This document shows, piece by piece, positions 2,024 to 61,459 of a DNA stretch of 64,000 nucleotides; within the stretch, counting starts at the first letter, position 1, and each line of letters opens with the position of its first letter. The stretch comes from Dehalococcoidia bacterium (lineage in GTDB: Bacteria; Chloroflexota; Dehalococcoidia; SZUA-161; SpSt-899), in NCBI GenBank assembly GCA_046498265.1, contig JAWOBB010000041.1, forward strand, positions 18,362 to 82,361, given 5' to 3'. The position numbers and the translations under genes are program-made. Under the pieces are notes generated by a model. That model ran no database searches, was not told the origin of the DNA, and saw only the letters and a list, made by a program, of their open reading frames with translations.

Positions 2024-2614
2024 TCATTCCTGCCGGCGTTCGATGGCGCCCATCAGGATTCCGGCTGCGATCATGAGCCGGCGGTCGATGGCAGGATTCG
2101 GCTCAAAAATGGTCATGGTGTACTTCAAGATGAATGGATTGAAATGCTGCTTGATAACCGCCTGCCCGAATCCATCGAGAGTTTGGACGGTATAGGTCTG
2201 GGGAACCAGGTCGATGAACCTGCTCAGCATGGCTCCCAGGATGCTCTTCTCCGTCAGCTTACCGACCTCCAGGTTACTGGCATCCAGGAAGGCCCACTCA
2301 TCCTTGAACATCGATTTGAAGAAACTTCGCCTGAGGGCCCCGACGCTTTCCATCGTCTGCATATCGGTAACATAGTATGTGGAACCCAGGTCGAGCATCT
2401 GGGGGGTTTTGATTCTCAGCAACGGCTGATTGACATCGCTGGCATAGACGGTGAAATCCTCCCTGATCCTGAAAGACGCCTGCTCGGAATGCATCACCTG
2501 CCTGCCGCTTTCATCGTAAACCTGGAAGAACCCGCCGAAAATCCTGAATACCTTCCGGCGGAAGGTGTACATATTGCCTCTAAATGCCGGATGGAGCTCT
2601 TTTCCCAATGCCAT
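2024..2614 (-). CDS. Hypothetical protein (possibly tubby-like / LURP-one-related DUF567 fold)
   Basis: 196-aa ORF with coding-like composition; only weak resemblance to DUF567-type proteins. Family call is speculative. Confidence 0.4.
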   Translation of the reverse strand: MALGKELHPAFRGNMYTFRRKVFRIFGGFFQVYDESGRQVMHSEQASFRIREDFTVYASDVNQPLLRIKTPQMLDLGSTYYVTDMQTMESVGALRRSFFKSMFKDEWAFLDASNLEVGKLTEKSILGAMLSRFIDLVPQTYTVQTLDGFGQAVIKQHFNPFILKYTMTIFEPNPAIDRRLMIAAGILMGAIERRQE

Positions 2615-7306: not shown

Positions 7307-8701
7307 TTAAGACACCTCCTTTTCTTTTCGGGTCACCTTGAGCTTGAGACCTTCTACTTCCGTTATGATCACCTCCTCTTCGGGTTCGGCCCGTCCTTCA
7401 TCCAGGACAGCCTCCCATAATTCACCATGAACCATAACCGTACCTCTGGGATCAAGGGCGGTTCTGACCTGGGCCTCTTTGCCAATCAGGCCCGGGGCCC
7501 CCGTGGGCTGTTTGCTGCGCTGGGCGCGCACCACCGCATAAAGGGCAAAAACGAGAAAACCCACAACTCCTACTACGACAACAACGATAAGCCACCAGTC
7601 AACTCCAAAGTCAGCCATTGATGTCCCTCCGGAAAATAGAATCAGAGAACCGATCACCAGAGCAGCTACACCCCCTGAAGAGAGCAGTCCGAAGCTGCTG
7701 GTAAACAGTTCGGCGGCGAACAGGCCAAAAGCAAGCAGGATGAGCAACACCCCCGCCCAGTAAGCATCCAGCACCGAGAGTGCATAGAAAGACATAAGCA
7801 GACTGAGAGCACCGGTCACTCCGGGGATAATAGAACCCGGACTGTAGAGTTCCAGGATAATGCCGAGCGAACCGATGCTCAGCAGGATGTAGGCGATGTT
7901 GGGGTCGCAGATGGCGTGGAGAAAGCGCTCGATGAGATTCATCCCCGTCTTGTGGATGGTGTAACCTTCGGTATGGATGGTTGCTGTTCCGCTATCGAGC
8001 ACAACTTCCCTGCCATCAAGCTTATCCAGCAAATCATAGATATCCTCGGCACCCAGGTCGACGAGCGGGGGAACCAGGCACGGGCTGCCCATCTCCAGCA
8101 CCTCCCGGTGGCTGGAGGGAACCGGAGCCATCCCCAGGGCTTCCTGATCAGTGAAGGAGAGGGCTTCGGCCACGGTGGCCTCGGCAGCCTTTTGATTGCG
8201 TCCCCTGAGATCGGCCAGGCTGCGGATATGTGCCCGCGTATCTTCCTGCAGTTTTTTCTCCAGCGTCTCGGATATCTCCTCGCCGCTCCCCGATACAGGG
8301 CTGGCAGCCCCGATCCGGCTGGCAGGGGCCATGGCCGCCACATGGGAAGCCATGGTAATAAACGTTCCCGCCGAACCGGCCCAGCGGTCGACGTAGACCA
8401 CCACCGGCACCTCCGCCTCAAGTATGCGATCAACGATGTCCTCGGTGGTAGTAAGCATGCCTCCCGGGGTCTTCAGTTCGATTACCACCACAGCAGCGCC
8501 CTCATCCTCTGCCCTGGAAATCCCCCGATCAATATAATCCGCTATCACCGGAACGATGGTTCCGTCAACATGAAGGACGTGAACTTCAGGGGATGAGGTA
8601 TCGGCAATGGCGCCTGCCGCCAGTGACAAAATGCCCATTAAGAAGGGCAACAGACATAATATATGAAATACCTTTTTCATCTTCATCGATTTCTTCATCA
8701 T
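7307..8701 (-). CDS. NfeD-like membrane-bound ClpP-class serine protease (stomatin-operon partner)
   Basis: Signal/TM segment, ClpP-like region (VIELKTPGGMLTTTEDIV...AGSAGTFITMASH), multi-TM segment and C-terminal OB/NfeD domain. Start chosen at the internal MMKKSMKMKK Met cluster; track ORF extends to 8764. Confidence 0.8.
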   Translation of the reverse strand: MMKKSMKMKKVFHILCLLPFLMGILSLAAGAIADTSSPEVHVLHVDGTIVPVIADYIDRGISRAEDEGAAVVVIELKTPGGMLTTTEDIVDRILEAEVPVVVYVDRWAGSAGTFITMASHVAAMAPASRIGAASPVSGSGEEISETLEKKLQEDTRAHIRSLADLRGRNQKAAEATVAEALSFTDQEALGMAPVPSSHREVLEMGSPCLVPPLVDLGAEDIYDLLDKLDGREVVLDSGTATIHTEGYTIHKTGMNLIERFLHAICDPNIAYILLSIGSLGIILELYSPGSIIPGVTGALSLLMSFYALSVLDAYWAGVLLILLAFGLFAAELFTSSFGLLSSGGVAALVIGSLILFSGGTSMADFGVDWWLIVVVVVGVVGFLVFALYAVVRAQRSKQPTGAPGLIGKEAQVRTALDPRGTVMVHGELWEAVLDEGRAEPEEEVIITEVEGLKLKVTRKEKEVS

Positions 8702-8877
8702 CGATTTGTCCTCAACACATTGGATTCCATTATAGCTGATTACTATCTTTTTGGAAACGGACATGATGCCATATCAAGAGAAAATTCTTGAGATAACATC
8801 AGCTTGACAATGTTATTACAGCAGGCTACGATTGAACCAAATGTCAGCGGAGACAACCTTCCCACAGAGGAGGCCGG

Positions 8878-9525
8878 ATGAGAGGGGATGTACTCGTCAT
8901 ACAGCCATGGCACACCAGCGCGGGACGAAAAGCGGCCGAGCTGATTACCTCTGAAATCTCCTCAAAGGAGGGCAGGTTCGCTGTCACCGTGGCCGGAGAG
9001 TCGGGCAGCGGCAAATCGGAGATAGCTGAGGTAATCTCCGAAGCGCTGGCCGAACAGGGCTTGAAATGCATCATTCTGCAGCAGGATGATTACTTCGTCT
9101 ATCCCCCCAAGACCAACGAAAACGTCCGCCGCCGGGACCCGGGATGGGTGGGGATAGGGGAGGTAAAACTCGACCTACTGGACCAGAACATCGCCGATAT
9201 CAAAGCTGGTGAGACGGAAATCCGAAAACCCCTGGTCATCTTCGAGGAGGATCGGGTAACCGAGGAGACGATATCCATCGACGAGGCCGTAAAGGTGGTC
9301 ATCGCCGAGGGCACCTTCACCACCACCCTCAAGAATGCTGACCTGCACATTTTCATCGACCTCGATTATACGGAAACGAAGAAGGCCCGGCTGGAACGGG
9401 CCCGGGAAGAGCAGGACGATTTCCTGGAAAACGTGCTCCAAATAGAGCACGAGATCATATCGGCCCATAAACCGATGGCGCATATCATCGTAACCGGCGA
9501 TTACGAGGTAGTAAAGAATGTTTAG
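8878..9525 (+). CDS. P-loop kinase of the uridine kinase / phosphoribulokinase family
   Basis: Walker A motif VAGESGSGKSEIAEV and a QQDDYF motif typical of Udk/PRK. Its last 8 nt overlap the downstream GT4 gene. Confidence 0.6.
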   Translation: MRGDVLVIQPWHTSAGRKAAELITSEISSKEGRFAVTVAGESGSGKSEIAEVISEALAEQGLKCIILQQDDYFVYPPKTNENVRRRDPGWVGIGEVKLDLLDQNIADIKAGETEIRKPLVIFEEDRVTEETISIDEAVKVVIAEGTFTTTLKNADLHIFIDLDYTETKKARLERAREEQDDFLENVLQIEHEIISAHKPMAHIIVTGDYEVVKNV

Positions 9526-10765
9526 CCGGATTGCCATGCTCAGCACCCACGGATATTTCGACCCGGTCCCCCAACTGGGCAGAACGGACACCGGCGGTCA
9601 GGTAACCTACGTAATGGAACTGGGCAAAGCCCTTACCACCCACGGCGTGAAAGTGGATATCTATACCCGCTGGTTCGAGCAAACAAAGCAGCAGATCGAC
9701 CCCGTCCCGGATTGCCCGGATATGAGGGTGATACGCATACCGGCCGGCCCCTGGGAGTTTATTCCCAAGGAGTTCATCTATGATGTCCTTCCTGATTTGG
9801 CTGAAAACATGGCCGATTTCATTGGGGAAAACGACCTCAGCTATGATCTCTATCACGGCCATTACGTCGATGCCGGCATCGTCGCCCTCGATGTAGCCCG
9901 GGCAATGAACAAACCCGCCTTCTTCACGCCGCATTCTCTCGGTGCCTGGAAGCGCGACCAGATGGGCGGGAACCCGCAAGAGATGGAAAAGCAGTTTAAC
10001 TTCACCCGTCGCATCGCCGAGGAAATGCGGATTTTTAAATCGGTTAATGCCCAGACGCTGACGACTCAATTGCAATACGAAAAATTAAAAGAGCTTTATG
10101 ATTTCGATGCGGATAACATCGTCGTCATCGAGCCCGGCACCGACATTCATACCTTTCATCCCCTGGCACCCGGCGAGAAAGAAACTGAGATCAGCCTGCC
10201 CCCCAAATACATCTTCTGTATCAGCCGGATCGATTCCAACAAGGGCCACGACATGCTGCTGCGGGCTTTCGACATCACCAGAAAAGAAGTGCCCGATGTC
10301 GACCTGGTTATCGGCGGCGGCTCGCCGCATCCCAAACAAAGGGAACTGGATATCAAGGCCGGGATGCAGGGGATCGTCGATGAATGCGGCATGGCGGAGC
10401 GGGTGCATATAATCGGCTACGTGCCGGACGAGCTGATGGCCCCTTACTATCGGCAGGCGCAGCTTTTTGCGCTTCCGTCACTCTTCGAGCCGTTCGGCAT
10501 GACCACCACCGAGGCCATGGCCTGCGGCACACCCGTGGTTGCCTCCAGATTCGGGGGCATCAGGACGGTCATCAATTCCGGGGAGAACGGGATTCTGGTG
10601 GACCCGACCGATGCTGAGGAATTCGCCGCAGCCATGATCGAGCTACTCAAAGACAGGGAAAAGGCCGAAAGGATCGGGGAGGCCGGGGCACAGACAGTCA
10701 GGGATCATCTGAGCTGGGAGGCCATTGCCCGCCGCCACCTCGAATTCTACGAGAGGTTCATGTAG
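9518..10765 (+). CDS. GT4-family glycosyltransferase, sucrose-phosphate-synthase-like
   Basis: N-terminus MLSTHGYFDPVPQLGRTDTGGQVTYVMELGKAL is diagnostic of the SPS / mannosylfructose-phosphate synthase clade; C-terminal GT4 motif EPFGMTTTEAMACGTPVVAS. Confidence 0.75.
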   Translation: MFSRIAMLSTHGYFDPVPQLGRTDTGGQVTYVMELGKALTTHGVKVDIYTRWFEQTKQQIDPVPDCPDMRVIRIPAGPWEFIPKEFIYDVLPDLAENMADFIGENDLSYDLYHGHYVDAGIVALDVARAMNKPAFFTPHSLGAWKRDQMGGNPQEMEKQFNFTRRIAEEMRIFKSVNAQTLTTQLQYEKLKELYDFDADNIVVIEPGTDIHTFHPLAPGEKETEISLPPKYIFCISRIDSNKGHDMLLRAFDITRKEVPDVDLVIGGGSPHPKQRELDIKAGMQGIVDECGMAERVHIIGYVPDELMAPYYRQAQLFALPSLFEPFGMTTTEAMACGTPVVASRFGGIRTVINSGENGILVDPTDAEEFAAAMIELLKDREKAERIGEAGAQTVRDHLSWEAIARRHLEFYERFM

Positions 10766-32861: not shown

Positions 32862-34067
32862 TTATTCTTCGATGCTGGTAATAACGCCGGAACCTACCGT
32901 TTTGCCCCCTTCTCTAATTGCAAATCTAACACCTTCCTCAAGGGCCACTGGCGTTATCAGCTTGACCTTCATTTGAACGTTATCACCGGGCAGGGCCATC
33001 TCCACCCCGCTGGGTAAGTTAAGCTCTCCAGTGATGTCCATTGTCCTGATGTAAAACTGGGGCTTGTAGCCACTGAAGAAAGGAGTGTGCCTGCCCCCTT
33101 CTTCTTTGGTCAGTACATATACTTCACCATTAAAATTGGTATGAGGTTTTATCGAGCCGGGTTTTGCCAGCACCATACCCCGCTCGACATCGTCCCGTTC
33201 AATTCCGCGCAACAGACACCCCACAGCATCGCCAGGGAGAGCTTCCTCAAGGTTTTTATGGAACATCTCGATACCTGTTACCACCGTTTTACGGGTATCT
33301 CCCAGCCCGACTATCTCTATCTCTTCGTTGAGCTTGAGGGTTCCCCTTTCCACCCTGCCGGTAACCACGGTGCCGCGACCTTTTATGCTGAAAACGTCCT
33401 CAACAGGCATGATGAACGGTTTGTCGGCAGGTCTCTGTGGTAAAGGTATATAGTTATCAACCTGGTCCATCAACTCCAGGATGGGTCCGCACCATTGACA
33501 CTCCCTCTTGCCGCAGCCGCATTCCAGGGCCTTGAGTGCGCTCACACGCACGATAGGAGTTGTATCACCAGGAAACTCGTAATGTGGCAAAATATCTTCC
33601 CTGAGCTCCATCTCGGTTACTTCGAGCAACTCTTCATCCTCCACCATATCCACCTTGTTAAGGGCGATAATGATTGAGGGAACTTCCACCTGCCTGGCCA
33701 GAAGGAGATGCTCGCGGGTTTGAGGCATTGCACCATCATCTGCAGCAATAACCAGTATCGCTCCATCCATCTGAGCTGCGCCAGTGATCATATTCTTGAT
33801 ATAATCCGCATGGCCGGGACAGTCCACATGAGCATAGTGTCGATTCTCAGTTTCGTACTCAATATGTGCGATGGCAATGGTCAATCCCCGGGCCTTTTCC
33901 TCGGGGGCATTGTCGATGCTGTCAAATGCCCTGAAGTTCACCTTGGGATTGTTAGCCGCTAGAACCTTGGTTATGGCTGCAGTGAGAGTCGTCTTCCCAT
34001 GATCAACGTGACCGATCGTCCCTATATTAAGGTGCGGTTTACTGCGATCAAAAGTCTCTTTAGCCAT
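32862..34067 (-). CDS. tuf: Elongation factor Tu
   Basis: 401 aa with [17 protein letters not shown] and NKVD motifs; nearly identical to canonical EF-Tu. Confidence 0.97.
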
Positions 34068-34103: not shown

Positions 34104-34178
34104 TGGAGCCCACAGCCAGACTTGAACTGGCGACCCCGTTCTTACCAAGAACGTGCTCTACCACTGAGCTATGTGGGC
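34104..34178 (-). tRNA. tRNA-Thr (anticodon GGT)
   Basis: 75-nt cloverleaf gcccacatagctcagtggtagagcacgttcttggtaagaacggggtcgccagttcaagtctggctgtgggctcca; anticodon loop tt-GGT-aa; CCA encoded. Lies immediately upstream of tuf, as E. coli thrT-tufB. Confidence 0.85.
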
Positions 34179-34181
34179 GAG

Positions 34182-34267
34182 TGGTGGAGGGGGCAGGATT
34201 CGAACCTGCGTAGCCTTCCGGCGGCAGATTTACAGTCTGCTGGTATTAACCGCTCACCCACCCCTCC
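34182..34267 (-). tRNA. tRNA-Tyr (anticodon GTA)
   Basis: 86 nt with a long variable arm; anticodon loop ct-GTA-aa; CCA encoded. Confidence 0.85.
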
Positions 34268-34273
34268 GGGAAG

Positions 34274-34346
34274 AGCCCGAGAGGGGACTCGAACCCTCTA
34301 ACCTGCCGATTACAAGTCGGCTGCGCTACCATTGCGCCACTCGGGC
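34274..34346 (-). tRNA. tRNA-Thr (anticodon TGT)
   Basis: 73 nt, gcccgagtggcgcaatggtagcgcagccgacttgtaatcggcaggttagagggttcgagtcccctctcgggct; anticodon loop ct-TGT-aa; no encoded CCA. Confidence 0.8.
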
Positions 34347-34526: not shown

Positions 34527-35060
34527 TTATTCATACCTCCTGACCTCAAAACGAAAGAGTTTGGCCGGTTCATCAAGGAAAATACCCGCTTTACTGCGAG
34601 CAATATCTATCTGTTGGGCGACGCTATTAACTCCGGGGAGATCGGGCAGCAGGATTCCCTTTTTGTTTCCCGCTACCACCAGCACACCGTATTTGACAGG
34701 ATCGAGCTCGGATTCTCTTTCGACGGGTTCGGGGGTGGTCAGAATATCAACTTTATAAGTAAGCTCCGGGAGCTCCTCCTCGGATACCGGGCCGGGATCG
34801 GGGAAAAAACGGTAATCGCGAGTTGCCGACGCCACAGCATTGCGAATAATCTCCTGCGCCACGTTGGGTTGCGTAGGCTCAAAGGTGCCGATACAGCCCC
34901 TTAGCTGCCCGTGTTTATGGATGGAAACAAAAACGCCAGCCCTTTCCGCCATCTCGGGCGTTTCCATCCTCGGATGCGGCGTCTCTTTATCCCGAACCAC
35001 CATTTCCACAGTCTCTTTAGCCAGTTTTACGACAGGATGTAACTTGCCTTCTTCCATCAT
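34527..35060 (-). CDS. AMMECR1-domain protein (AmmeMemoRadiSam system protein A)
   Basis: 177 aa with the AMMECR1 hallmark LRGCIGTFEPTQP; 4-nt overlap with the Memo-like gene. Confidence 0.85.
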   Translation of the reverse strand: MMEEGKLHPVVKLAKETVEMVVRDKETPHPRMETPEMAERAGVFVSIHKHGQLRGCIGTFEPTQPNVAQEIIRNAVASATRDYRFFPDPGPVSEEELPELTYKVDILTTPEPVERESELDPVKYGVLVVAGNKKGILLPDLPGVNSVAQQIDIARSKAGIFLDEPAKLFRFEVRRYE

Positions 35061-35860
35061 TTTATAATCACCCCCGCATATCCGACTACGCCGCCGTAGT
35101 CACCCGTGACATCCCCGCTGGTCTGATATCTAACCAGCTCTGCTTCCCTCGCCCCAAGCTCTTTGGCCGCAGAGATGAGAGAGACCACCGGCCCGTATCC
35201 GCACATAGTTATATTGAATTCCCTGATTCGCCCCAGCAACTCGTCCTCAGCCAAATCAAGAATGGCCTCGATGGCTTTCATATCTTTTGTCCGGGCGCTT
35301 TCCTGCGGCTCATAGTGGGTCATATCGCTGCTGGCCATAATCACCACTTCCTGACCGCTTTCCTTAACGGCCCTGGCAATACTTTTGCCTATTTCCTTAT
35401 AGAATTCACCGCCGGAATGGGAAAGCACAATGGGCACAATCTTAATATTCTCCCCCAGATACTGCAGGAAAGGCAATTGAACCTCTATTGAATGCTCATA
35501 ACGATGCGCTTCGGCATCCTCATCAAGATATTCGGAATTTTGCAGGATCAGCTTTCCCAGTTCGGCATCGATTTGTACTTCACCGAGCGGAGTCTCCCAG
35601 TTTTCCCCGGTCATAATGGCGAAAGGAGAGCCCATACCCGTATGGTTTGGCCCCATAATCACGAAGGTACCCGCCGGTTCTATTCTCGAAAGGGTGGCTC
35701 CGGCCACCGGTCCGGAAAACGAGTAGCCGGCATGAGGGGAAATCAGGCCAATAACTTTTTCTCTGGAAACCTGGGGATCCATCATCCGTTCGATTTCAGC
35801 CAGCAACGCCCCGGCTGAACCCGGATAGAACCTTCCCGCTACCACCGGCTTTCTGGCCAT
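35057..35860 (-). CDS. Memo1-like protein (AmmeMemoRadiSam system protein B)
   Basis: Begins MARKPVVAGRFYPGSAGALL...LISPHAGYSFSGPVAG, the defining N-terminal signature of the Memo/AmmeMemoRadiSam-B family. Confidence 0.85.
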   Translation of the reverse strand: MARKPVVAGRFYPGSAGALLAEIERMMDPQVSREKVIGLISPHAGYSFSGPVAGATLSRIEPAGTFVIMGPNHTGMGSPFAIMTGENWETPLGEVQIDAELGKLILQNSEYLDEDAEAHRYEHSIEVQLPFLQYLGENIKIVPIVLSHSGGEFYKEIGKSIARAVKESGQEVVIMASSDMTHYEPQESARTKDMKAIEAILDLAEDELLGRIREFNITMCGYGPVVSLISAAKELGAREAELVRYQTSGDVTGDYGGVVGYAGVIIK

Positions 35861-35874
35861 GGTTCACCTCCTCT

Positions 35875-36885
35875 CTAAATCCTGAAGTTGAGTTCCGTGC
35901 CGCAATATTTGCACCTGGAACCGTCGAGTCCAACCACTCTGATGTGATAACCCACCCGTTCCACTACGAGATTGCCGCAGGAATAGCAAACTGTATTTTC
36001 ACCCGCACTCCCGGGCACATTGCCGATATAGACATAGCGCAGCCCTGCCTCCTTTCCGATTTCCATGGCAGTTTCCAGGGTCTGAAGGGGAGTTGAAGGG
36101 ACTTGTTTCATTCTGTACATGGGATGGAAGCGGCTGATATGCCAGGGCGTATCTACACCAAGTTCGTTGACTATGAAATCCACCGCCTGGTGCAATTCTT
36201 CAGGGGCATCATTGATTCCGGGGATTACCAGAGTGGTCACCTCCAGGAAAACCCCATAACCTTTAAGCGCTTTCAGGTTATCCAGAATCGGCTGGAGTGC
36301 ACCCCCAACATACTTATGATAGGTCTCTTCCCGGAACGCTTTCAGATCAACGTTAATAGCGTCGAGCAGGGGATGGAAAAACTCCAGCATCCGGCTGCTC
36401 ATATAACCATTGCTTACATATACGTTAGACAGGCCGGCTTCGTGAGCCAGATGAGCAGTTTCATAGGTATACTCAAAAAAAATGGTTGGTTCAGTATAGG
36501 TATAAGAGATACTTCGACACCCGCTTTGTTTAGCGGCAGCCACAATTTCCTCGGGAGATGCTTCTATCCCGGCCACCAGATCCCGCTCCCGGGGCATCTG
36601 GGAAATATCCGCATTCTGGCACCAGTCGCAATGAAAATTGCATCCGGGAGTAGCAATCGAATAAGAAGTGGTACCGGGCTGGAAATGAAAGAGGGGCTTC
36701 TTTTCAATGGGGTCTACGTTGCGAGCGATGGTTCTTCCATAGACAAGGGTGTACAGAATACCATCCTGATTTTCCCGCACATAGCAGATTCCCTTCTTGC
36801 CCTCTGCAATTTTACAATGATGGGCACACAGATCACAGCGCACCTTATTATCAGGGAGCTTCTCATAGAGCATAGCCTCGCGCAT
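35875..36885 (-). CDS. AmmeMemoRadiSam system radical SAM enzyme
   Basis: N-terminal Cys motif VRCDLCAHHCKIAEGKKGIC, canonical radical-SAM CNFHCDWC, and a C-terminal Cys-rich tail. Confidence 0.85.
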   Translation of the reverse strand: MREAMLYEKLPDNKVRCDLCAHHCKIAEGKKGICYVRENQDGILYTLVYGRTIARNVDPIEKKPLFHFQPGTTSYSIATPGCNFHCDWCQNADISQMPRERDLVAGIEASPEEIVAAAKQSGCRSISYTYTEPTIFFEYTYETAHLAHEAGLSNVYVSNGYMSSRMLEFFHPLLDAINVDLKAFREETYHKYVGGALQPILDNLKALKGYGVFLEVTTLVIPGINDAPEELHQAVDFIVNELGVDTPWHISRFHPMYRMKQVPSTPLQTLETAMEIGKEAGLRYVYIGNVPGSAGENTVCYSCGNLVVERVGYHIRVVGLDGSRCKYCGTELNFRI

Positions 36886-36942
36886 ACAAACCTCTTCTCC
36901 AGATAAATTCAGGAGTTCAACAGGGTCGCATCGATAACCTGG

Positions 36943-38085
36943 TTATGCCTTACCCTGGGCCATCTGCAATTGCTTACCCTCGGTCTTTATGGCTGGAGCA
37001 ATTACCAGTTCGATTTGACGGTATGCTTCGAGATTTTGAGCCCCGCACATCCCCATACTTGTGCGAAGCGCCCCTACGAGATTCTGGGTTCCGCCGGTGA
37101 CGGTGGCCGGACCGAAGAGGGTTTGCTCCAGAGTGCTGTTTTGAGGAACCTTAACCCTCACTCCCCTCGGCAAGCCGGCATGAGGGGTAGCCATCCCCCA
37201 GTGATACCCCCTGCCGGGAGCCTCGGCAGTTTGCACCATGATCGAGCCCAGCATTACAGCATCAGCTCCACAGGCAAACGATTTACAGACATCCCCGCCG
37301 GCGCGAATGCCCCCATCAGTGATGATGGAAACATAATTACCGGTATCACGAAAATAATCGTCCCTGGCAGCGGCGCATTCCAGCGTGGCCGTTGCCTGGG
37401 GTACCCCGACACCGAGAACCTCCCTTGAAGTGCAGGCTGCCCCCGGCCCTATCCCTATCAGCAAAGCAGTTACACCGGTCTCCATCAAGGCACGGGCCGC
37501 ACTGTACGTAACGCAGTTACCAACAATGATAGGAACCGAAATCCACTCACGAAGTTCGGAAAAAACGAGCCCTCGTTCGCTCTTGGAAATATGCCTGGCG
37601 CTGGTAACTGTTGATTGAACTACCAGTACATCCATTCCTGCTTCTTGAGCAAGCGGGGATAAACGCTTGGTAAGAGCCGGTGTCAAAGATACTGCCGCAA
37701 CTCCGCCCCCTTCCTTGATTGCTTTTATCCGATCACCCACCAGGTTATCCTTAATCGGTTGAGAATAGAGTTTCTGCATCAAGGGAGTAACTTCCTCATC
37801 ACCAGCAGCAGCGATTTCCGCCAGACACTCATCCGGATCTTCATAGCGGGTTTGCAGCCCTTCCAGATTGAGCACAGCCAGGCCGCCGAGTTTACTCATA
37901 GAAATTGCAAAGTTGACATCAACTACGGCATCCATAGCAGCCGCCATGATAGGGATATCAAAATGGAGTTCGCCTAGATCGAGGCCAATATCGGTCTGCT
38001 CGGGATTAATGGTGACATTCCCAGGAACAAGGGCTATATCCTCAAAACCGTAGGCATGGCGCAAAGTTCGACGTTCCTGGCTCAA
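36943..38085 (-). CDS. IMP dehydrogenase/GMP reductase-family protein lacking the CBS pair (GuaB3-like)
   Basis: 380-aa TIM barrel with IMPDH active-site loop IGIGPGAACTSREVLGVGVPQ; no CBS insertion. Confidence 0.7.
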   Translation of the reverse strand: MSQERRTLRHAYGFEDIALVPGNVTINPEQTDIGLDLGELHFDIPIMAAAMDAVVDVNFAISMSKLGGLAVLNLEGLQTRYEDPDECLAEIAAAGDEEVTPLMQKLYSQPIKDNLVGDRIKAIKEGGGVAAVSLTPALTKRLSPLAQEAGMDVLVVQSTVTSARHISKSERGLVFSELREWISVPIIVGNCVTYSAARALMETGVTALLIGIGPGAACTSREVLGVGVPQATATLECAAARDDYFRDTGNYVSIITDGGIRAGGDVCKSFACGADAVMLGSIMVQTAEAPGRGYHWGMATPHAGLPRGVRVKVPQNSTLEQTLFGPATVTGGTQNLVGALRTSMGMCGAQNLEAYRQIELVIAPAIKTEGKQLQMAQGKA

Positions 38086-38153
38086 AATACACCTCTTTCT
38101 TATTTTGATTTATCTATAATTATAGGGAACTTTAGCAGAGCCTGCAATCAAAG

Positions 38154-38891
38154 TCAATCCACCATCTGCCCCATCGGAACAAGCCTGACCTGGCCCCAGG
38201 CACCCATCCTGTCATCTTTGATGATCAGAATTCCTTTCAGGGAATCAATACCTTGCGCCAGCTCTATTCCTTTCTCAATATCCCCCAACTCTTTGACGAC
38301 GTTACCGGCAGCAGTAGCCACGGCATCGGCCAGCGCCGCCGATTGGGCCAGAACAATCACGGCATCAGCTTTGCCCAAACTTAGAGAATGGCCCACGGTT
38401 CCTGAGGAAGTGCAAATTCCCATAGGCGTTTGGTCGGGTTCGATCTCCAGGGCAAGCCTGCCGCTCAAAGGAGAATCACCGGCATAAATACCAACTGTAC
38501 GTTTTCGTTTGGTCTGAAGAAAGATATCCCCTCCGTTTTCAACGATCAACTCCAATGAGAAGGGTAAAAGCTCTTTCCCCACCGCTTCGGCGATGGCCCC
38601 GGCTACCGCCGCCATTGGCCCAAGTGAAACCGCTTCTGTGACACGGGACATTTCTTTAACAATCAACGGAGCATCATCCTGCACAGCGATTGGCCCAAGA
38701 GAGGTAAGAAACAAAGGATTTCGGGCGATGTATCCTTCAATGGCCCCTCGATATTTGTCAACCACCTTTTTTGCCTTTCGCCTCAGGTTGCGGCGGGCAC
38801 GGATACGCAGGTCAGTTTCTCCGACGGCCACATCAAAAGAAACCAGGTCAGTATCCTTAACCCAGTGGCGATAGGTTCGCGGCTGATACAT
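38154..38891 (-). CDS. UPF0280 / ApbE-like family protein (COG2122-like, putative)
   Basis: 245 aa. Assignment rests on recalled resemblance to archaeal UPF0280 proteins and on its position next to the DUF39 / NIL-ferredoxin pair. Confidence 0.4.
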   Translation of the reverse strand: MYQPRTYRHWVKDTDLVSFDVAVGETDLRIRARRNLRRKAKKVVDKYRGAIEGYIARNPLFLTSLGPIAVQDDAPLIVKEMSRVTEAVSLGPMAAVAGAIAEAVGKELLPFSLELIVENGGDIFLQTKRKRTVGIYAGDSPLSGRLALEIEPDQTPMGICTSSGTVGHSLSLGKADAVIVLAQSAALADAVATAAGNVVKELGDIEKGIELAQGIDSLKGILIIKDDRMGAWGQVRLVPMGQMVD

Positions 38892-39013
38892 GCAGTGCTT
38901 ATCCCACGAAAATTAAAACAGTAGAAATGAAGAGTACTGTCCGTTGCGGTTGGACAGATCGTATCAGGATTCCGGTATTACCGGGATTGCCCGACGCTTA
39001 TCTCCCAGGATAC

Positions 39014-39424
39014 TTAGAAGCGTATCTCCATGGCCCGGGGCGGACAGGCAGGGACGCATATGCCACAGGCCAGGCACTTATCTTCCTTGAAATCCACCCG
39101 CCTCGTTTCGTGATCAACCACCAATGCACCCGCCGGGCAAATTGCCACGCAAGCGCCACAGTGAGTACACCTTTCTTCGTTGCGGATTATATCCTGGCTT
39201 AACGGCTGAATGCCCACACCCGTTTCCGCCAGGTAATCCATGCCCTTTTTGTAATCCCGGGATTTGCCGCTTAATTCCACCACCAGCACCCCTTCCTCTT
39301 TCGGAGTGACTGAGGCCTTCAGAATGTTGAAATCGATATTAAACTCCCTGGCCAGCCGGCACAGAATCGGCTGATCCACCAGTGAGCGGGGGAAATGCAA
39401 AACTACTCTCCTGGTTACCGGCAC
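39014..39424 (-). CDS. NIL-domain / 4Fe-4S ferredoxin fusion protein (MA1822-type)
   Basis: N-terminal NIL-like domain followed by two CxxCxxCxxxCP motifs (CTHCGACVAICP, CLACGICVPACP). Confidence 0.75.
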   Translation of the reverse strand: MPVTRRVVLHFPRSLVDQPILCRLAREFNIDFNILKASVTPKEEGVLVVELSGKSRDYKKGMDYLAETGVGIQPLSQDIIRNEERCTHCGACVAICPAGALVVDHETRRVDFKEDKCLACGICVPACPPRAMEIRF

Positions 39425-39519
39425 ATCAATACCCCTTTACTCTCAATTTAGCAAAAACACTGCCAGGTTGAACTGCCCGGAAATCACTCACTCTACTTCA
39501 GATATATCTCTTCCCCGGT

Positions 39520-40737
39520 TCAACTCTCATCCTGCTTCGGGGGCCTTTCCTTAAGCGACTTGAACTCTATACCGGCTTCGAGACCCGGGATGGGAGCTAC
39601 CGGTTCGGTAAGCAGGAAATCGCCCTTTTGAATCCAATCCTTTAAGGTATCGGCTATCTCCTTCGCCTTGTAGTAACTCGAAAGGGAAGCGGTGGGAGTT
39701 TCCTTCCCGGATACCTGTATCTTCCCGCTTTTAAGTTCGGCATAATTCACTTCGCCCAGAATATCCGGCAGGCATTGCGGAAATGCCTTCGAATAATCCA
39801 CTATGGGAGCAAAAATTTCTTCGTCCCTGACTGAAACATGGCGCAATATATCTTCGGAAAGGACAGGTATAGGGACACCGATCCCCACGGTCAGGCTGGC
39901 GCCATAACCAAGCATGCTGGTACCTATCAGCCATCCCGGCTTCATCTGCTTTAGATTGCCAATAACCGCCAGAGTCCCAGCCGCCCTCGTGGGTACCCCA
40001 TTCTCACCCCGGGGCACATCCGGGTGATGCTGGGTACCATGCCAGGCAACATAACCTATCCCACCGCCAAGGAATATTTTCGTCCCGATACCGATGGTCT
40101 GGTAATGCGGATCGTTGAGCAGCGGGGAAAGCTGCCCCGAAGTGGAGTAATTGGCATTGCCGCAATTGGGTTTGAGTACCCCCATGTAAGTGTAAAGTGT
40201 CTTCTCCGAAAGATTTACGGCTACACTGTAATTCTGACTGGCATTACGTATATTGAAAAGGGTGGCTTCATTCATATCCTCGAGCCGGACCAGGGTTTCA
40301 ATCTTCTTCCTGGGGTAGCAATCCGTTCCATAAGCGGCCACCGCCAGCCTCAAATCCCTGCCCGCCAGCAAATCCTCGATGACATGCCCGCCACCGTAGT
40401 CGAAATGGCCCGGATGAACCTTGTTACGAGGGTCGTCATCGGGAAGGGCAGTGGCCCCGAGAAAAACGTCCACCGCGGCAATCCCGGTGTAAACCGGCAC
40501 ATCGTTCAAGGTGGCCCGGCCACCGCCGGCCTTCAATCGGGGGGATGTGTGCCCCAAATTCAGAAAAACCCCGGAGGAACACATCGGGCCGAACGTGCCG
40601 GTGGTCACCACATCGATTTCCTCAGCCGCCTTCTCAACACCTTTTTCCTCGACGATGCCGATGATCTCCTCGGCGTTTACCACCACTGCCCGGCCTTTGC
40701 CAATCTTCTCGTTGATTTCAGCAACCGTCCTGTTCAT
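39520..40737 (-). CDS. DUF39 (COG1900) homocysteine-biosynthesis protein (MA1821-type), no CBS pair
   Basis: 405 aa; DUF39-like conserved blocks (e.g. VVTTGTFGPMCSSG); sits immediately upstream of the NIL-ferredoxin gene, as in methanogens. Confidence 0.7.
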   Translation of the reverse strand: MNRTVAEINEKIGKGRAVVVNAEEIIGIVEEKGVEKAAEEIDVVTTGTFGPMCSSGVFLNLGHTSPRLKAGGGRATLNDVPVYTGIAAVDVFLGATALPDDDPRNKVHPGHFDYGGGHVIEDLLAGRDLRLAVAAYGTDCYPRKKIETLVRLEDMNEATLFNIRNASQNYSVAVNLSEKTLYTYMGVLKPNCGNANYSTSGQLSPLLNDPHYQTIGIGTKIFLGGGIGYVAWHGTQHHPDVPRGENGVPTRAAGTLAVIGNLKQMKPGWLIGTSMLGYGASLTVGIGVPIPVLSEDILRHVSVRDEEIFAPIVDYSKAFPQCLPDILGEVNYAELKSGKIQVSGKETPTASLSSYYKAKEIADTLKDWIQKGDFLLTEPVAPIPGLEAGIEFKSLKERPPKQDES

Positions 40738-40823
40738 GGATGCAAACCTTATTTATACTACCGATTCCAGTATATGTTAATTAATATGCTTTTGTAAAAT
40801 TATTTATCAGGGAAATCTGAGTT

Positions 40824-43385
40824 TCAAGACCGCGCCTTTTTCTGCAGTTCATACAGTCTGGCGATGGCCTCCAGCGGGGTCATGGAATCGATATCCATGT
40901 TCTGCAACTCTTCCACCACCGGGGGAGTCGAACCGAAAAGGGGTATTTGAGAAGAAGGCGGGGATTCCTTCTTTCGGGAAGGCAGTTTCCCCTTCTCGGC
41001 GGCGCCGTTTTCCAGCCCCTCCAGGATCTCCTCGGCGCGGTGAACCACCGACCGGGGCATTCCCGCCAGCTGGGCAACGTGGATTCCATAGCTCCGGTCG
41101 GCCCCGCCGGGGACGATCTTTCGCAAAAAGACCACCTTGCCCCCTTCCTCCGTTACCGCCACATTGCAGTTTTTCACCCGCGGCAGGATATCGCCCAGTT
41201 CCACAAGCTCGTGATAGTGGGTGGCGAAAAGGGTCTTGGCCCCAAGCTGCGGGTTGTTGTGGATATGTTCGGCCACCGCATGGGCAATGGAAAGGCCGTC
41301 GTAGGTGCTGGTGCCCCGGCCGATCTCGTCCAGGATTATCAGCGAGCGGGGAGTGGCGTTGTTCAGGATGCTGGCCGTCTCGGTCATCTCGATCATGAAA
41401 GTGGAGCGTCCGGCAGCCAGGTCGTCCATCAATCCCACCCGGGTGAAGATGCGGTCCACCAGCCCGATGGAGGCGGAGTCGGCGGGAACGAAGGAGCCGA
41501 TCTGGGCCATGAGCACCATCAGGGCCACCTGGCGCAGGTAGGTCGATTTCCCCGCCATGTTGGGACCGGTCAGGATGACGACCTGGGATTCGCCGTTGGA
41601 GAGCCAGGTATCATTGGGCACGAATCCGCCCTCGGTGAGAACCTGTTCCACTACCGGGTGCCGCCCGCCGGTTATCTGTATCGAGTCTCCGGTTGTAAGT
41701 TCGGGACGAACGTAATTGTAGCGAACCGCCGCCTCGGCAAAGGCAGCCAGGATATCCAGGCGGGCGACGGCTTGAGCCGTCTGAAGTATCCGCTCGCCCC
41801 ATCCACCGACCTGCTGGCACACCTGCCGGAACAGGGTGCTCTCCAGCTCCGAGATGCGCTCCTCGGCATTGAGGATCAGCGACTCGTACTCCTTCAGCTC
41901 AGGGGTGAAGAAGCGCTCCGCACCCACCAGCGTCTGCTTGCGGATATAATCGCCGGGAATCTTCTCCAGGTGGGTGCTGGTCACCTCGATATAGTACCCG
42001 AAGACCTTGTTGTAGCCCACCTTGAGCGATTTGATGCCGGTCCGCTCCCGCTCCTTGCTCTCCAGGTCGGCGAGGTATTGCCTGGCATTCCGGGAAGCGG
42101 AGCGAATCTGGTCCAGTTCCGGGGAGAAGCCCGGTTTAATCAGCTCGCCATAGGCAGAGGCTTCGTCAACGATAGCCCGGGAAATCAGCTCAGCCGCCTC
42201 AGGGCAGGCTTTCAAATCGGAGGAAATCCAGCCGAGCGGAGAGGATTCGTCTTCGATTATGGCCTTTATCTGCGTGATCGCCTCAAGGCTGTGGCGCAGC
42301 GAGGTAAGCTCCCGGGCGATGGCAATCCCCGCTCTTACTCGATTAATCAGCCTTTCCATGTCGGCCAGCTTGTTCAGGGTATTGACCAGCTCAATGCGGC
42401 GGGAGGTGCTGGAGGCCAGCCAGGCCGCCGCTTCGTGCCGCCGGCTGATGGCTTCGATATCGAGCAACGGCTGGCCCAGCCAGTTCTTAATCAGCCTGCC
42501 GCCCATGGGTGTTTTAGTAAGGTCGATGACCGAAAGAAGCGAGCTTGACCCCGTTGCCATCTGCCCCGACTGGAACAGCTCCAGGTTGCGGCTGGTCTGG
42601 GCATCGAGGACCATGAAGGAATCGGTGGAATAAGTGGAAAGCTTTGAGAGGTGCCCCAGCACCCCTTTCTGCGTTTCCTGCAGATAATGAATAATCGCCC
42701 CGGCGGCCCGAACCGCCAGCGGCAGACCGGCACAGCCGTAAGCCTCCAGCGAGACCGCGCCGAAATGTTCCAGCAGGGCCCGGCGGGCGGTTTCCTCCTC
42801 GAACCACCGCTCGTCAAGCGGGGTCTGGGAAAAGGGAAGCTGGGGCAAACCGGCTTCTTTGGGGAGGATGATTTCGGAGGGCTTCAGCCTCTCCATCTCG
42901 GCGATGAGGCGTTCGGCGCTGAGCTGGGTGGTGGCGAATTCGCTGGTGGTTATATCAACATAAGCGATGCCCGCCTTTTCCCCGTCGGAGACCAGAGCCG
43001 CCAGGTAATTGTTGGAGGTGGTCTCCAGCAGACTGGTCTCCACCACCGTTCCGGGAGTTACCACCCTGACCACGTCCCGGTCCACCAGCCCTTTAGTGGC
43101 TTTGGGGTCGCCGGTCTGCTCGCAGATGGCCACCTTGTGCCCGGCGGCGATCAGCCTGGCCAGGTAACTTTCCAGGGCGTGATGGGGAATCCCCGCCATG
43201 GGGAAGCGCTGCCCCTTACCCATGGAACGGGAAGTGAGCACGATCTGGAGCTCCCGGGCCACGATCTCGGCATCGGCTTCGAAGGTCTCGTAGAAATCGC
43301 CGAGCCGGAAGAAGACGATAGTCTCGGGATACCGTTCCTTGATCCTGAGATACTGGCGCCGGATGGGAGTCGGGCCCTTGGTCAT
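40824..43385 (-). CDS. mutS: DNA mismatch repair protein MutS
   Basis: 853 aa with MutS domains I-V, Walker A GPNMAGKST and the C-terminal HTH/dimerisation region. Confidence 0.95.
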   Translation of the reverse strand: MTKGPTPIRRQYLRIKERYPETIVFFRLGDFYETFEADAEIVARELQIVLTSRSMGKGQRFPMAGIPHHALESYLARLIAAGHKVAICEQTGDPKATKGLVDRDVVRVVTPGTVVETSLLETTSNNYLAALVSDGEKAGIAYVDITTSEFATTQLSAERLIAEMERLKPSEIILPKEAGLPQLPFSQTPLDERWFEEETARRALLEHFGAVSLEAYGCAGLPLAVRAAGAIIHYLQETQKGVLGHLSKLSTYSTDSFMVLDAQTSRNLELFQSGQMATGSSSLLSVIDLTKTPMGGRLIKNWLGQPLLDIEAISRRHEAAAWLASSTSRRIELVNTLNKLADMERLINRVRAGIAIARELTSLRHSLEAITQIKAIIEDESSPLGWISSDLKACPEAAELISRAIVDEASAYGELIKPGFSPELDQIRSASRNARQYLADLESKERERTGIKSLKVGYNKVFGYYIEVTSTHLEKIPGDYIRKQTLVGAERFFTPELKEYESLILNAEERISELESTLFRQVCQQVGGWGERILQTAQAVARLDILAAFAEAAVRYNYVRPELTTGDSIQITGGRHPVVEQVLTEGGFVPNDTWLSNGESQVVILTGPNMAGKSTYLRQVALMVLMAQIGSFVPADSASIGLVDRIFTRVGLMDDLAAGRSTFMIEMTETASILNNATPRSLIILDEIGRGTSTYDGLSIAHAVAEHIHNNPQLGAKTLFATHYHELVELGDILPRVKNCNVAVTEEGGKVVFLRKIVPGGADRSYGIHVAQLAGMPRSVVHRAEEILEGLENGAAEKGKLPSRKKESPPSSQIPLFGSTPPVVEELQNMDIDSMTPLEAIARLYELQKKARS

Positions 43386-59829: not shown

Positions 59830-60927
59830 TTAGCTTTTGTCACCCAGTTCTTTGAATATTTGATCAAAAGGTGTCAATGGCTGATATAAAGGCATTTCCT
59901 GAATTTGTGCCTTGACTTGATTCAAAATCATTAAGATTTCAAAGGCTGCTTCAAAAGAGAGTATACCATCACTCAAGGTTACATCAATTTCTTTGATGGC
60001 TTTCTTGATGAAGATCTCGACATGTTGTGGGTTGAGATGGCCATACTCTTTGCGGTTATCTTGAGAATCAAATATTTCGAATTCATCCTTCAAAAAATCA
60101 AGCTGAATACGCCCTCGCGAACCACAGATATTCATAGCTTTGGTGTCACTAGCCACGTATTTGCCCATAATAGCTCGAACTGGCAAATCACCAATTGTAA
60201 AATCCAGCAAGGCAAATGTTTCTCCGCAAATTGGGCATCCAACATATTGTGCCACCTTTACCTTGTCAAGTTTTATCCGTTGAAAACTTAGTTTGGGTAC
60301 GGTTGAGTCTCCTTCAACAAGAACACCAACAATGGCTAGAATGTGGCAGAACAGGTCAAAGATTATTCCTTTGTCCAGACTTTGCTCCCGATGTGGTGGA
60401 ATACTAGACGATTCCAGAATAGAGAAGTCTATTGATTTTAATTCACCTATTTCCCGAAGGCATTCTCTCTTTAGCCGTAAAAAAGGCCATGCTCTAGCAA
60501 GATAGTGATCAAAAGCAAATACGGTGTTCCGCTTTTGTTCTCTCTCAATCTTCTCTTTCAATGCTAGTGCCGATAACACAGAGACGTCAAGGGGCTTCTC
60601 AACAAAAATATTTCCTCTAGGATCTATATGATCGAGCCAGTAACTAGCCACAGAGGAATGGTATCGGTCAGGTGTCACAACAAAAACATGAGTTATATCG
60701 GAGGTATCGCTGTGTTGTCTATCATTTTTGTTGATATAGCGCACACTCCTGGAATGAGCCAGCACATGCCACAATTTTTTGATGTACGGGTCACCCAACC
60801 GTATCTCAGGCTCGATGCCTATTGCCAGAAGTTCGGTTTTCCCTTCCTGGACACTCTCCAATAAGGTAGGGAGATAATGCAGTTGGGCCCATTCCGTGTT
60901 GCAGCCTTCAAGGATTATCTTTTTCAT
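59830..60927 (-). CDS. Gfo/Idh/MocA-like oxidoreductase-fold protein with degenerate dinucleotide-binding motif
   Basis: Track ORF is 59830..60966; start moved to MKKIILEG. HVFVVTPDRYHSSVASYWLDHIDPRGNIFVEKPLDVSVLSALAL matches the Gfo/Idh/MocA signature, but the GxGxxG is replaced by LEGCNTE. About 40% GC versus about 58% in flanking DNA. Confidence 0.45.
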   Translation of the reverse strand: MKKIILEGCNTEWAQLHYLPTLLESVQEGKTELLAIGIEPEIRLGDPYIKKLWHVLAHSRSVRYINKNDRQHSDTSDITHVFVVTPDRYHSSVASYWLDHIDPRGNIFVEKPLDVSVLSALALKEKIEREQKRNTVFAFDHYLARAWPFLRLKRECLREIGELKSIDFSILESSSIPPHREQSLDKGIIFDLFCHILAIVGVLVEGDSTVPKLSFQRIKLDKVKVAQYVGCPICGETFALLDFTIGDLPVRAIMGKYVASDTKAMNICGSRGRIQLDFLKDEFEIFDSQDNRKEYGHLNPQHVEIFIKKAIKEIDVTLSDGILSFEAAFEILMILNQVKAQIQEMPLYQPLTPFDQIFKELGDKS

Positions 60928-60931
60928 TAGA

Positions 60932-61459
60932 TTAAATAGGAAATTCCCAGTCCCATATTTGTTCACCTAAGATTGTAACGAATAATCCCGCAAAAACAAG
61001 GAAAGTAAATAGATAGAATCCGAGAATCCATCTGAAGGTAGCTCTATTCACTAGCCAGTTTCTTAGTGATGATCCATCTGTATCCATTTTAATCTTCCTA
61101 GGGAATCCCAAATCCGCAGATTTCAAAGTTTCCGGGAAATCGCCCCTAACTTGCATTTCCTCTAGCGTATCTCTGATTCCCAATTCTCTGGATAGGAACC
61201 TAAGTAATTTTTCAGTACCGTCTCGATAATAGGTATCTTTGGCCACAGAAATACTAATCACTAATGAGAAATATGCTCCTATAAATAGCAAACAAAGCTT
61301 CACAGCCCACAACTCTTCCCCAACTGTCCCTAATGCAATGCCTACTAGTCCAAACAAAACTCCTGATGCGCCAAGTTTATCAAGCACGTATTTATCTCGT
61401 AAACACCAATCTTCGTAAAGTAATTCGTACTCGATTTTTTTAATTTTCTCTTTATCCAT
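60932..61459 (-). CDS. Hypothetical integral membrane protein
   Basis: 175 aa, about 4 TM helices, low GC. ATG preceded by GGGAGG contributed by the 45-bp repeat. Confidence 0.5.
   Translation of the reverse strand: MDKEKIKKIEYELLYEDWCLRDKYVLDKLGASGVLFGLVGIALGTVGEELWAVKLCLLFIGAYFSLVISISVAKDTYYRDGTEKLLRFLSRELGIRDTLEEMQVRGDFPETLKSADLGFPRKIKMDTDGSSLRNWLVNRATFRWILGFYLFTFLVFAGLFVTILGEQIWDWEFPI

Follow-up and report, generated by a model that had tools for sequence, protein, structure and literature searches.

Sulfide-dependent synthesis of homocysteine has been described in archaea and in bacteria. The archaeal work (Rauch 2014; Allen 2015) and the enzyme name L-ASST (for L-aspartate-semialdehyde sulfurtransferase) are summarised in PMC12068725. 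Desulfovibrio alaskensis requires the DUF39 gene Dde_3007 to synthesise homocysteine, and a DUF39 mutant recovers when homocysteine is supplied (Kuehl 2014, PMC4045070). The same study identified a Dehalococcoides orthologue, DET0921, observed that the bacterial protein does not have the CBS domain of MJ0100, and reported that DUF39 orthologues often adjoin genes for a ferredoxin and a COG2122 protein. Desulfovibrio vulgaris mutants in the DUF39, NIL/ferredoxin and COG2122 genes are auxotrophic for methionine, and the pathway does not pass through homoserine (Price 2018, PMC5764234); according to that work the pathway "encoded by DET0921:DET0919" appears to be the one that Dehalococcoides uses. 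The Dehalococcoides core-MetE paper is silent on the origin of homocysteine. Here we analysed a stretch of 64,000 nt (the window) from an uncultured, metagenome-assembled Dehalococcoidia bacterium, with the span 36943-40737 under study, and conclude that the genes at 38154-40737 very probably encode a bacterial sulfide-dependent homocysteine pathway made up of an L-ASST and a sulfur-loading helper.

Gene calls were based on open reading frames (ORFs) and on Pfam and NCBIfam profile searches, for which about 37 window ORFs were scanned. The span holds four genes on the minus strand, for a DUF39 protein, a NIL-ferredoxin, a UPF0280 protein and an IMP dehydrogenase (IMPDH) homologue of the GuaB3 type (Table 1), and the first-pass annotation of this DNA had placed all four ORFs and named their families correctly; the E values obtained lie well outside what chance would give. 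We computed to which families the proteins belong, how far their catalytic cysteines and cluster ligands are conserved, the helper's fold, the conservation of gene order and, in relatives, linkage to the S-adenosylmethionine (SAM)/methionine regulon.

Among the closest described systems is DET0921:DET0919 of Dehalococcoides mccartyi (ethenogenes) 195, likened here by its published description: it lies in the same bacterial class and is a three-gene cluster for the same DUF39 pathway. The lineage of the window is different and uncultured, and its flanks (mutS, GuaB3 and the AmmeMemoRadiSam trio) are specific to its clade. In Desulfovibrio the same three families occur, the DUF39 protein is CBS-less as it is here, and there is genetic proof that all three genes are needed. 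The genes concerned are Dde_3007, DvMF_1464 and DVU2938 (DUF39), DvMF_0262 (NIL/ferredoxin) and DvMF_0044 (COG2122), with DVU1097 (PDB 2O34) as a further member of the last family. Desulfovibrionaceae DUF39 homologues were 54-61% identical to the window protein. Locus tags suggest that D. vulgaris Miyazaki has its three genes dispersed, whereas those of the window are contiguous. The likeness to Methanosarcina acetivorans MA1821, MA1822 and MA1715 consists of a COG1900a protein with both cysteines, an adjacent gene for a NIL protein with two [4Fe-4S] clusters and a COG2122 helper. The Methanosarcina catalytic subunit differs in ending in a pair of CBS domains thought to sense SAM, which the window protein lacks, and MA1715 lies apart from MA1821-22, while the window has its helper gene inside the cluster.

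The 405-aa protein matched PF01837 (earlier DUF39/COG1900, now named HcyBio) over profile positions 1-349 of 349, with an E value of 9.3e-150 and 498.8 bits. In the hidden Markov model searches it thus fell inside DUF39/COG1900, and the 245-aa ORF was recovered as a UPF0280 protein with an ApbE-like fold, as the first-pass annotation had proposed for both. The Pfam search gave no match to CBS (PF00571) in the 405-aa protein. Against the methanogenesis marker 16 model TIGR03287 it scored 119.4 bits, far under the cutoff of 363.95, so that it is assigned to the COG1900a homocysteine subfamily and not to coenzyme M synthase. Marker 16/ComF (COG1900d), the coenzyme M synthase, shares the COG1900 domain and an analogous aldehyde-to-thiol chemistry; unlike the window protein it has an inserted ferredoxin domain and its conserved cysteines elsewhere, and it acts on sulfoacetaldehyde. 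There was no Fer4 match inside the 405-aa protein, and hence no inserted ferredoxin domain of that type.

Exactly two cysteines were conserved in an alignment of 74 DUF39 sequences (the window protein and 73 homologues from genome loci), Cys53 in 100% and Cys140 in 97%. Two cysteines are almost universal among L-ASST homologues; in MA1821 they are Cys54, which is essential in vivo, and Cys131 (PMC12068725). Among 1.84 billion representative proteins searched, P0242 (504 aa, 52-54% identity) was recovered, in which Pfam finds HcyBio and a CBS pair, as in the archaeal form. Cys53 and Cys140 have aligned cysteine counterparts in P0242, within the motifs GPMCSSG and YGTDCYPRK. Between them the window protein has insertions of 2 and 8 residues relative to this CBS-type representative, so that in P0242 the two lie 77 residues apart, as do Cys54 and Cys131. 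Neither L-ASST cysteine is present in more distant COG1900 representatives (30-43% identity). The nearest relatives (72-88% identity) all come from Dehalococcoidia/Chloroflexota metagenome-assembled genomes and share the CBS-less architecture, and NCBI names the nearest Dehalococcoidia ones "homocysteine biosynthesis protein". The best-supported reading of the 405-aa protein is as a putative catalytic subunit of L-ASST in its CBS-less bacterial form. Among the representatives three DUF39 architectures were observed, CBS-tailed, ferredoxin-fused and plain; P0243 and P0249 carry a C-terminal ferredoxin with two [4Fe-4S] clusters and no NIL domain, and P0366 has a cysteine-rich insert inside the DUF39 domain.

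The 136-aa protein has a NIL domain at residues 5-72 (E 5.9e-18) and matches Fer4 dicluster models at residues 79-132 (Pfam). Its eight cysteines, arranged in two CxxCxxCxxxC motifs, were invariant in 57 sequences. The gene lies 95 bp downstream of the DUF39 gene, where the partner of an L-ASST is expected; the next two gaps in the span, to the UPF0280 gene and then to GuaB3, are 122 and 68 bp. The best-supported reading is that it would be the electron-donating subunit, equivalent to MA1822, and the equivalence of the two genes to MA1821/MA1822 made in the first-pass annotation is borne out by their domains and conserved cysteines. The NIL part also matched the C-terminal domain of MetN (2QRR) at E 5.8e-6. 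NIL domains bind methionine and regulate activity (PMC12068725, citing the MetNI structure), and the NIL-ferredoxin probably senses methionine.

The 245-aa protein scored 310.6 bits against NCBIfam NF003323 (PRK04334.1-3), above the cutoff of 271, which upholds its earlier identification as the COG2122/UPF0280 partner. There was no match to it in our local copy of Pfam; a database entry with 100% identity bears the name "UPF0280 family protein [Dehalococcoidia bacterium]" and carries a precomputed assignment to Pfam PF27030, and the Joint Genome Institute names homologues "ApbE superfamily uncharacterized protein (UPF0280 family)". By sequence it matched PDB 2O34 (DVU1097 from D. vulgaris Hildenborough) at E 5e-40, and its AlphaFold model (predicted local distance difference test, pLDDT, 88.5) superposed on 2O34 with 38% identity and a template modelling (TM) score of 0.83. 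The model also matched about 40 chains of the flavin transferases ApbE, Ftp and FmnB (E 3e-7 to 2e-4, TM 0.5-0.63), the best of them at E ~3e-7 with probability 1.0, whereas a sequence profile built from the UPF0280 alignment found only 2O34 and did not reach ApbE. Membership in the ApbE superfamily therefore holds at the level of the fold. The protein is shorter than ApbE flavin transferases (245 aa vs. about 300-330), and COG2122 proteins are described as having no flavin-binding region such as genuine ApbE flavin transferases possess (PMC5764234, which cites Rauch and Perona). It has a single conserved cysteine, Cys160 (91%), in the motif GICTSSG. As best supported, the protein would be a helper in sulfide assimilation and in sulfur delivery to the DUF39 enzyme.

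Gene order was compared in 80 genome loci with DUF39 homologues. Among the 64 loci with at least 2.5 kb downstream, a NIL-ferredoxin gene was present in 50, a UPF0280 gene in 38 and both in 37. Where all three genes occur, 39 of 43 loci have the order and strand of the window (DUF39, NIL-ferredoxin, UPF0280). These three-gene loci span Chloroflexota, Bacillota, Atribacterota, Actinomycetota, Desulfovibrionaceae and others; Syntrophomonas, Pelotomaculum, Thermovenabulum and Dethiobacter are among the Bacillota genera. A SAM-I riboswitch lies upstream on the same strand in 7 of the 10 Bacillota loci scanned (88-98 bits). In three of them it directly precedes the DUF39 gene (L038, L044, L049), and in four the order is riboswitch, metH-like gene, DUF39, NIL-ferredoxin, UPF0280 (L033, L037, L040, L041). 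The MetH-like domains (homocysteine S-methyltransferase, pterin-binding and B12-binding) were confirmed in L040; those of L033, L037 and L041 were found by tblastn. A metH gene adjoins the cluster in 9 loci, including these four, which are the ones whose order was checked. The riboswitch and metH linkage in Bacillota relatives supports the methionine assignment, independently and indirectly.

No SAM riboswitch or other Rfam match was found in 10 Dehalococcoidia loci, and the linkage to metH is likewise missing from Dehalococcoidia, so the same pathway would be regulated differently in the two phyla. The short stretch upstream of the DUF39 gene, 40738-40823, has no room for a riboswitch and contains two sigma-70-like matches of 10/12. 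The promoter/terminator scan gave 7 sites against 6.4 expected from shuffled sequences, and 7 against 9.8; since these counts are not above the shuffles, the sites are only suggestive, with the exception of one conserved upstream block. This block, TTTTACAAAA..CATAT..TTGACATATACTGGAAT..TAGTATAAAT, is kept in the window and in three relatives (L001, L002, L007). It lies just upstream of the DUF39 start codon, persists where the upstream gene differs, and contains a pair of CATAT repeats, 7 nt apart, around the -35 element. The stretch probably holds the DUF39 promoter, and the CATAT-repeat block may be the operator for a regulator. For the Dehalococcoidia cluster this conserved promoter-proximal motif and the NIL domain are the only candidates for control. 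In L007 (76% identity) an insertion of ~200 nt without an Rfam match separates the block from the start codon. The same locus has additional ORFs at 8246-8524, 8653-8898 and 10228-10533, whose identities were judged by eye and not by profile search: a NifU/Nfu-like ORF of 92 aa and a cysteine-rich one of 81 aa between the DUF39 and NIL-ferredoxin genes, and a CutA-like one of 101 aa between UPF0280 and GuaB3. An Fe-S scaffold gene inside that cluster would fit its role in iron-sulfur and sulfur trafficking.

Taken together with the published orthologue work, from which the substrate, the need for all three genes and the role of a persulfide are taken, a mechanism can be proposed, in which we infer the order of the chemical steps and the control through NIL. 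The UPF0280/COG2122 protein, with its one conserved cysteine, would capture sulfide and load the DUF39 enzyme. The essential cysteine of the latter (Cys53, Cys54 in MA1821) would probably bear the sulfur as a persulfide, and the DUF39/HcyBio catalytic subunit would replace the aldehyde oxygen of L-aspartate 4-semialdehyde with it. The NIL-ferredoxin would then give two electrons through its two [4Fe-4S] clusters, taking a thioaldehyde-level intermediate to L-homocysteine, while the NIL domain would probably mediate feedback control by methionine. Methylation of the homocysteine would fall to a separate methionine synthase, with its gene at another place in the genome. Of the earlier proposal of a methionine route independent of metE/metH or of O-acetylhomoserine, the second half is right, as homoserine and O-acetylhomoserine are bypassed. 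Independence from metE/metH does not follow: the product is homocysteine, whose conversion to methionine still takes a methionine synthase, and metH stands beside the cluster in 9 relatives.

Several points weigh against a homocysteine pathway in this organism. The source is an uncultured metagenome-assembled genome, and the functional evidence comes from orthologues elsewhere; in the pathway literature cited here, no reconstitution of any L-ASST with purified proteins is reported. We found no relative of the DUF39 protein in the PDB, and its AlphaFold model, built from an alignment of 22 sequences of close relatives, was unusable (pLDDT 31.9). Rfam gave no SAM riboswitch in the window at the gathering threshold and no match at E<=1 in 36800-41000, and no other recognisable methionine-linked regulatory element was found upstream of the cluster. 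Among the scanned ORFs of the 64-kb window there was no methionine synthase, aspartate-semialdehyde dehydrogenase or other met gene. In addition, L-ASST may partly replace coenzyme M synthase in Methanosarcina, and the substrates of COG1900 proteins may overlap (PMC12068725).

One alternative reading is that the DUF39 enzyme takes a different aldehyde or serves general sulfur trafficking, like other COG1900 subfamilies (marker 16 converts sulfoacetaldehyde toward coenzyme M), and that no homocysteine is made. COG1900 is functionally diverse, a coenzyme M side activity of L-ASST has been suggested (PMC12068725), and the missing methionine-linked element in the window would agree with such a role. 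However, the marker 16 score is far under its cutoff and the inserted ferredoxin domain is absent; both L-ASST-type cysteines are present, which the distant COG1900 representatives lack; the partner's NIL domain is of the methionine-binding type known from MetN; the orthologous clusters of Bacillota follow SAM riboswitches and adjoin metH; and the literature assigns the Dehalococcoides orthologues to homocysteine synthesis (PMC5764234, PMC4045070). We regard this reading as very improbable.

A second alternative concerns the fourth gene of the span. The 380-aa protein scored 425.4 bits against the GuaB3 family model TIGR01304 (cutoff 342.1), and it consists of the IMPDH domain only, with no CBS match. 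It matched the "IMP dehydrogenase subunit" structures 8P4Q and 8P37 over its full length at E 2.8e-124, with an identical active-site loop (GIGPGAACTSR). That cyanobacterial GuaB3 likewise has no Bateman/CBS module, and its host phylum differs from that of the window. The GuaB3 family is without the CBS module by nature, and the mycobacterial GuaB3 has no known activity (PMC9790621); PMC13273366, which cites Hernandez-Gomez 2023 for the GuaB3 structure, treats cyanobacterial guaB3 as an IMPDH gene. DUF39 proteins are themselves sometimes annotated as IMP dehydrogenase, which Pfam curators consider spurious (Kuehl 2014, PMC4045070).

GuaB3, and perhaps the AmmeMemoRadiSam genes, might act with the DUF39 set in a larger functional unit, for instance as a link between the supply of methionine/SAM and either purine metabolism or a radical-SAM modification. 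All these genes are on the same strand with gaps of 57-122 bp, and the arrangement mutS, DUF39, NIL-ferredoxin, UPF0280, GuaB3, radical SAM, Memo, AMMECR1 is kept in L001 (88% identity) and L007. Neighbourhood counts point the other way. GuaB3 adjoins the cluster in only 2 of the 64 loci with enough flanking DNA, namely L001 and L007, and as both keep the whole neighbourhood (mutS and the AmmeMemoRadiSam trio included), the adjacency is local synteny and not a pathway link. The CutA-like gene parts UPF0280 from GuaB3 in L007, unrelated genes follow the cluster in L002 (87% identity), and GuaB3 is preceded by a promoter-like site of its own and by a strong ribosome-binding site. The closeness of the protein to the solved cyanobacterial GuaB3, whose gene is treated as an IMPDH gene, also argues against a larger unit, which we consider very improbable. 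Equally doubtful is a more specific form of it, in which the cluster, GuaB3 and AmmeMemoRadiSam of this Dehalococcoidia clade would tie methionine/SAM supply, guanine nucleotide synthesis and the radical-SAM system together under a protein regulator at the upstream motif and NIL, replacing the CBS pair and the riboswitches. GuaB3 was rejected as a pathway member on the neighbourhood counts. To judge from its sequence, the 380-aa protein is most likely the organism's IMP dehydrogenase, with no relation to the homocysteine pathway.

The first-pass annotation had connected the IMPDH-like neighbour to the set and had stressed that both this protein and the DUF39 protein lack CBS domains. Both absences are real. 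GuaB3, however, lacks the module as a family and is adjacent in 2/64 loci, which removes the connection. As for the DUF39 protein, all 73 of 73 complete bacterial ORFs are 379-442 aa long, so that the CBS-less form is the bacterial norm, and the absence of CBS from the bacterial protein had already been noted by Kuehl 2014; no special meaning attaches to it. The shared absence of CBS domains is a coincidence.

Recent horizontal acquisition of the cluster from methanogenic archaea as a foreign "methanogen-type" island, which might be suggested by the first description of the pathway in methanogens and by the 52-54% identity of the DUF39 protein to a CBS-bearing representative, is extremely unlikely and was rejected on G+C content (0.51-0.52 across 36-40 kb, like the surrounding housekeeping DNA), on synteny (a position between mutS and the tuf/ribosomal region that is kept in relatives) and on its nearest relatives (all Dehalococcoidia at 72-88% and CBS-less too), and no mobile-element genes were found nearby in the window ORF scans.

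Table 1. Positions of the homocysteine cluster and neighbouring features in the 64,000-nt window.
Feature	Position	Strand	Family model or remark
mutS	40824-43385	minus	Upstream neighbour of DUF39 gene
Promoter region, AT-rich, short (probable)	40738-40823	minus	Between mutS and DUF39 gene
DUF39/HcyBio (COG1900a) protein, 405 aa	39520-40737	minus	PF01837
NIL + 2x[4Fe-4S] ferredoxin, 136 aa	39014-39424	minus	NIL and Fer4 models
UPF0280/COG2122 protein, 245 aa, ApbE superfamily	38154-38891	minus	NF003323
GuaB3-type CBS-less IMPDH homologue, 380 aa	36943-38085	minus	TIGR01304
AmmeMemoRadiSam radical SAM enzyme	35875-36885	minus	TIGR04337
AmmeMemoRadiSam Memo-like protein B	35057-35860	minus	TIGR04336
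AmmeMemoRadiSam AMMECR1 protein A	34527-35060	minus	TIGR04335
tRNA-Thr(TGT), tRNA-Tyr(GTA), tRNA-Thr(GGT)	34104-34346	minus	Directly upstream of tuf
tuf (EF-Tu)	32862-34067	minus	After three tRNA genes

Immediately downstream of GuaB3 is a complete AmmeMemoRadiSam system whose three genes are closely spaced, with one gap of 14 bp and one overlap of 4 bp. We assign no function to the trio because the curated family models are typed only "hypothetical equivalog". The tRNA genes that precede tuf represent a common bacterial arrangement. EF-Tu contains a four-cysteine motif at residues ~182-195 in domain I, which is kept in L001 and could be a zinc-binding knuckle; E. coli EF-Tu is not known to carry cysteines there. 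The window is otherwise ordinary, with folD, proA/proB, ribosomal protein genes, rpoB/rpoC, glmS and sugar-metabolism genes, and it also holds a citramalate/isopropylmalate synthase-like gene. Three ORFs had no Pfam match at E<=1e-5: two of 378 and 175 aa (59830-61459, minus strand) and one of 196 aa (2024-2614, minus strand). The first two sit in the lowest-GC stretch of the window (0.42-0.45 at 60-64 kb), which could be foreign DNA.

Published work already covers the pathway and its three components, as well as the bacterial form without CBS and the occurrence in Dehalococcoidia, and the locus adds no new biology. The description of the set as an unusual "methanogen-type" one in a bacterium is not sustained, as the pathway has been shown genetically in Desulfovibrio, the cluster has been noted in Dehalococcoides, and 39/43 bacterial loci with all three genes have the same order. 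The value of the finding lies in correct annotation. With this cluster the uncultured bacterium probably has a direct route from aspartate semialdehyde and sulfide to homocysteine, so tools that check only for metX, metY and metB should not class it as a methionine auxotroph.

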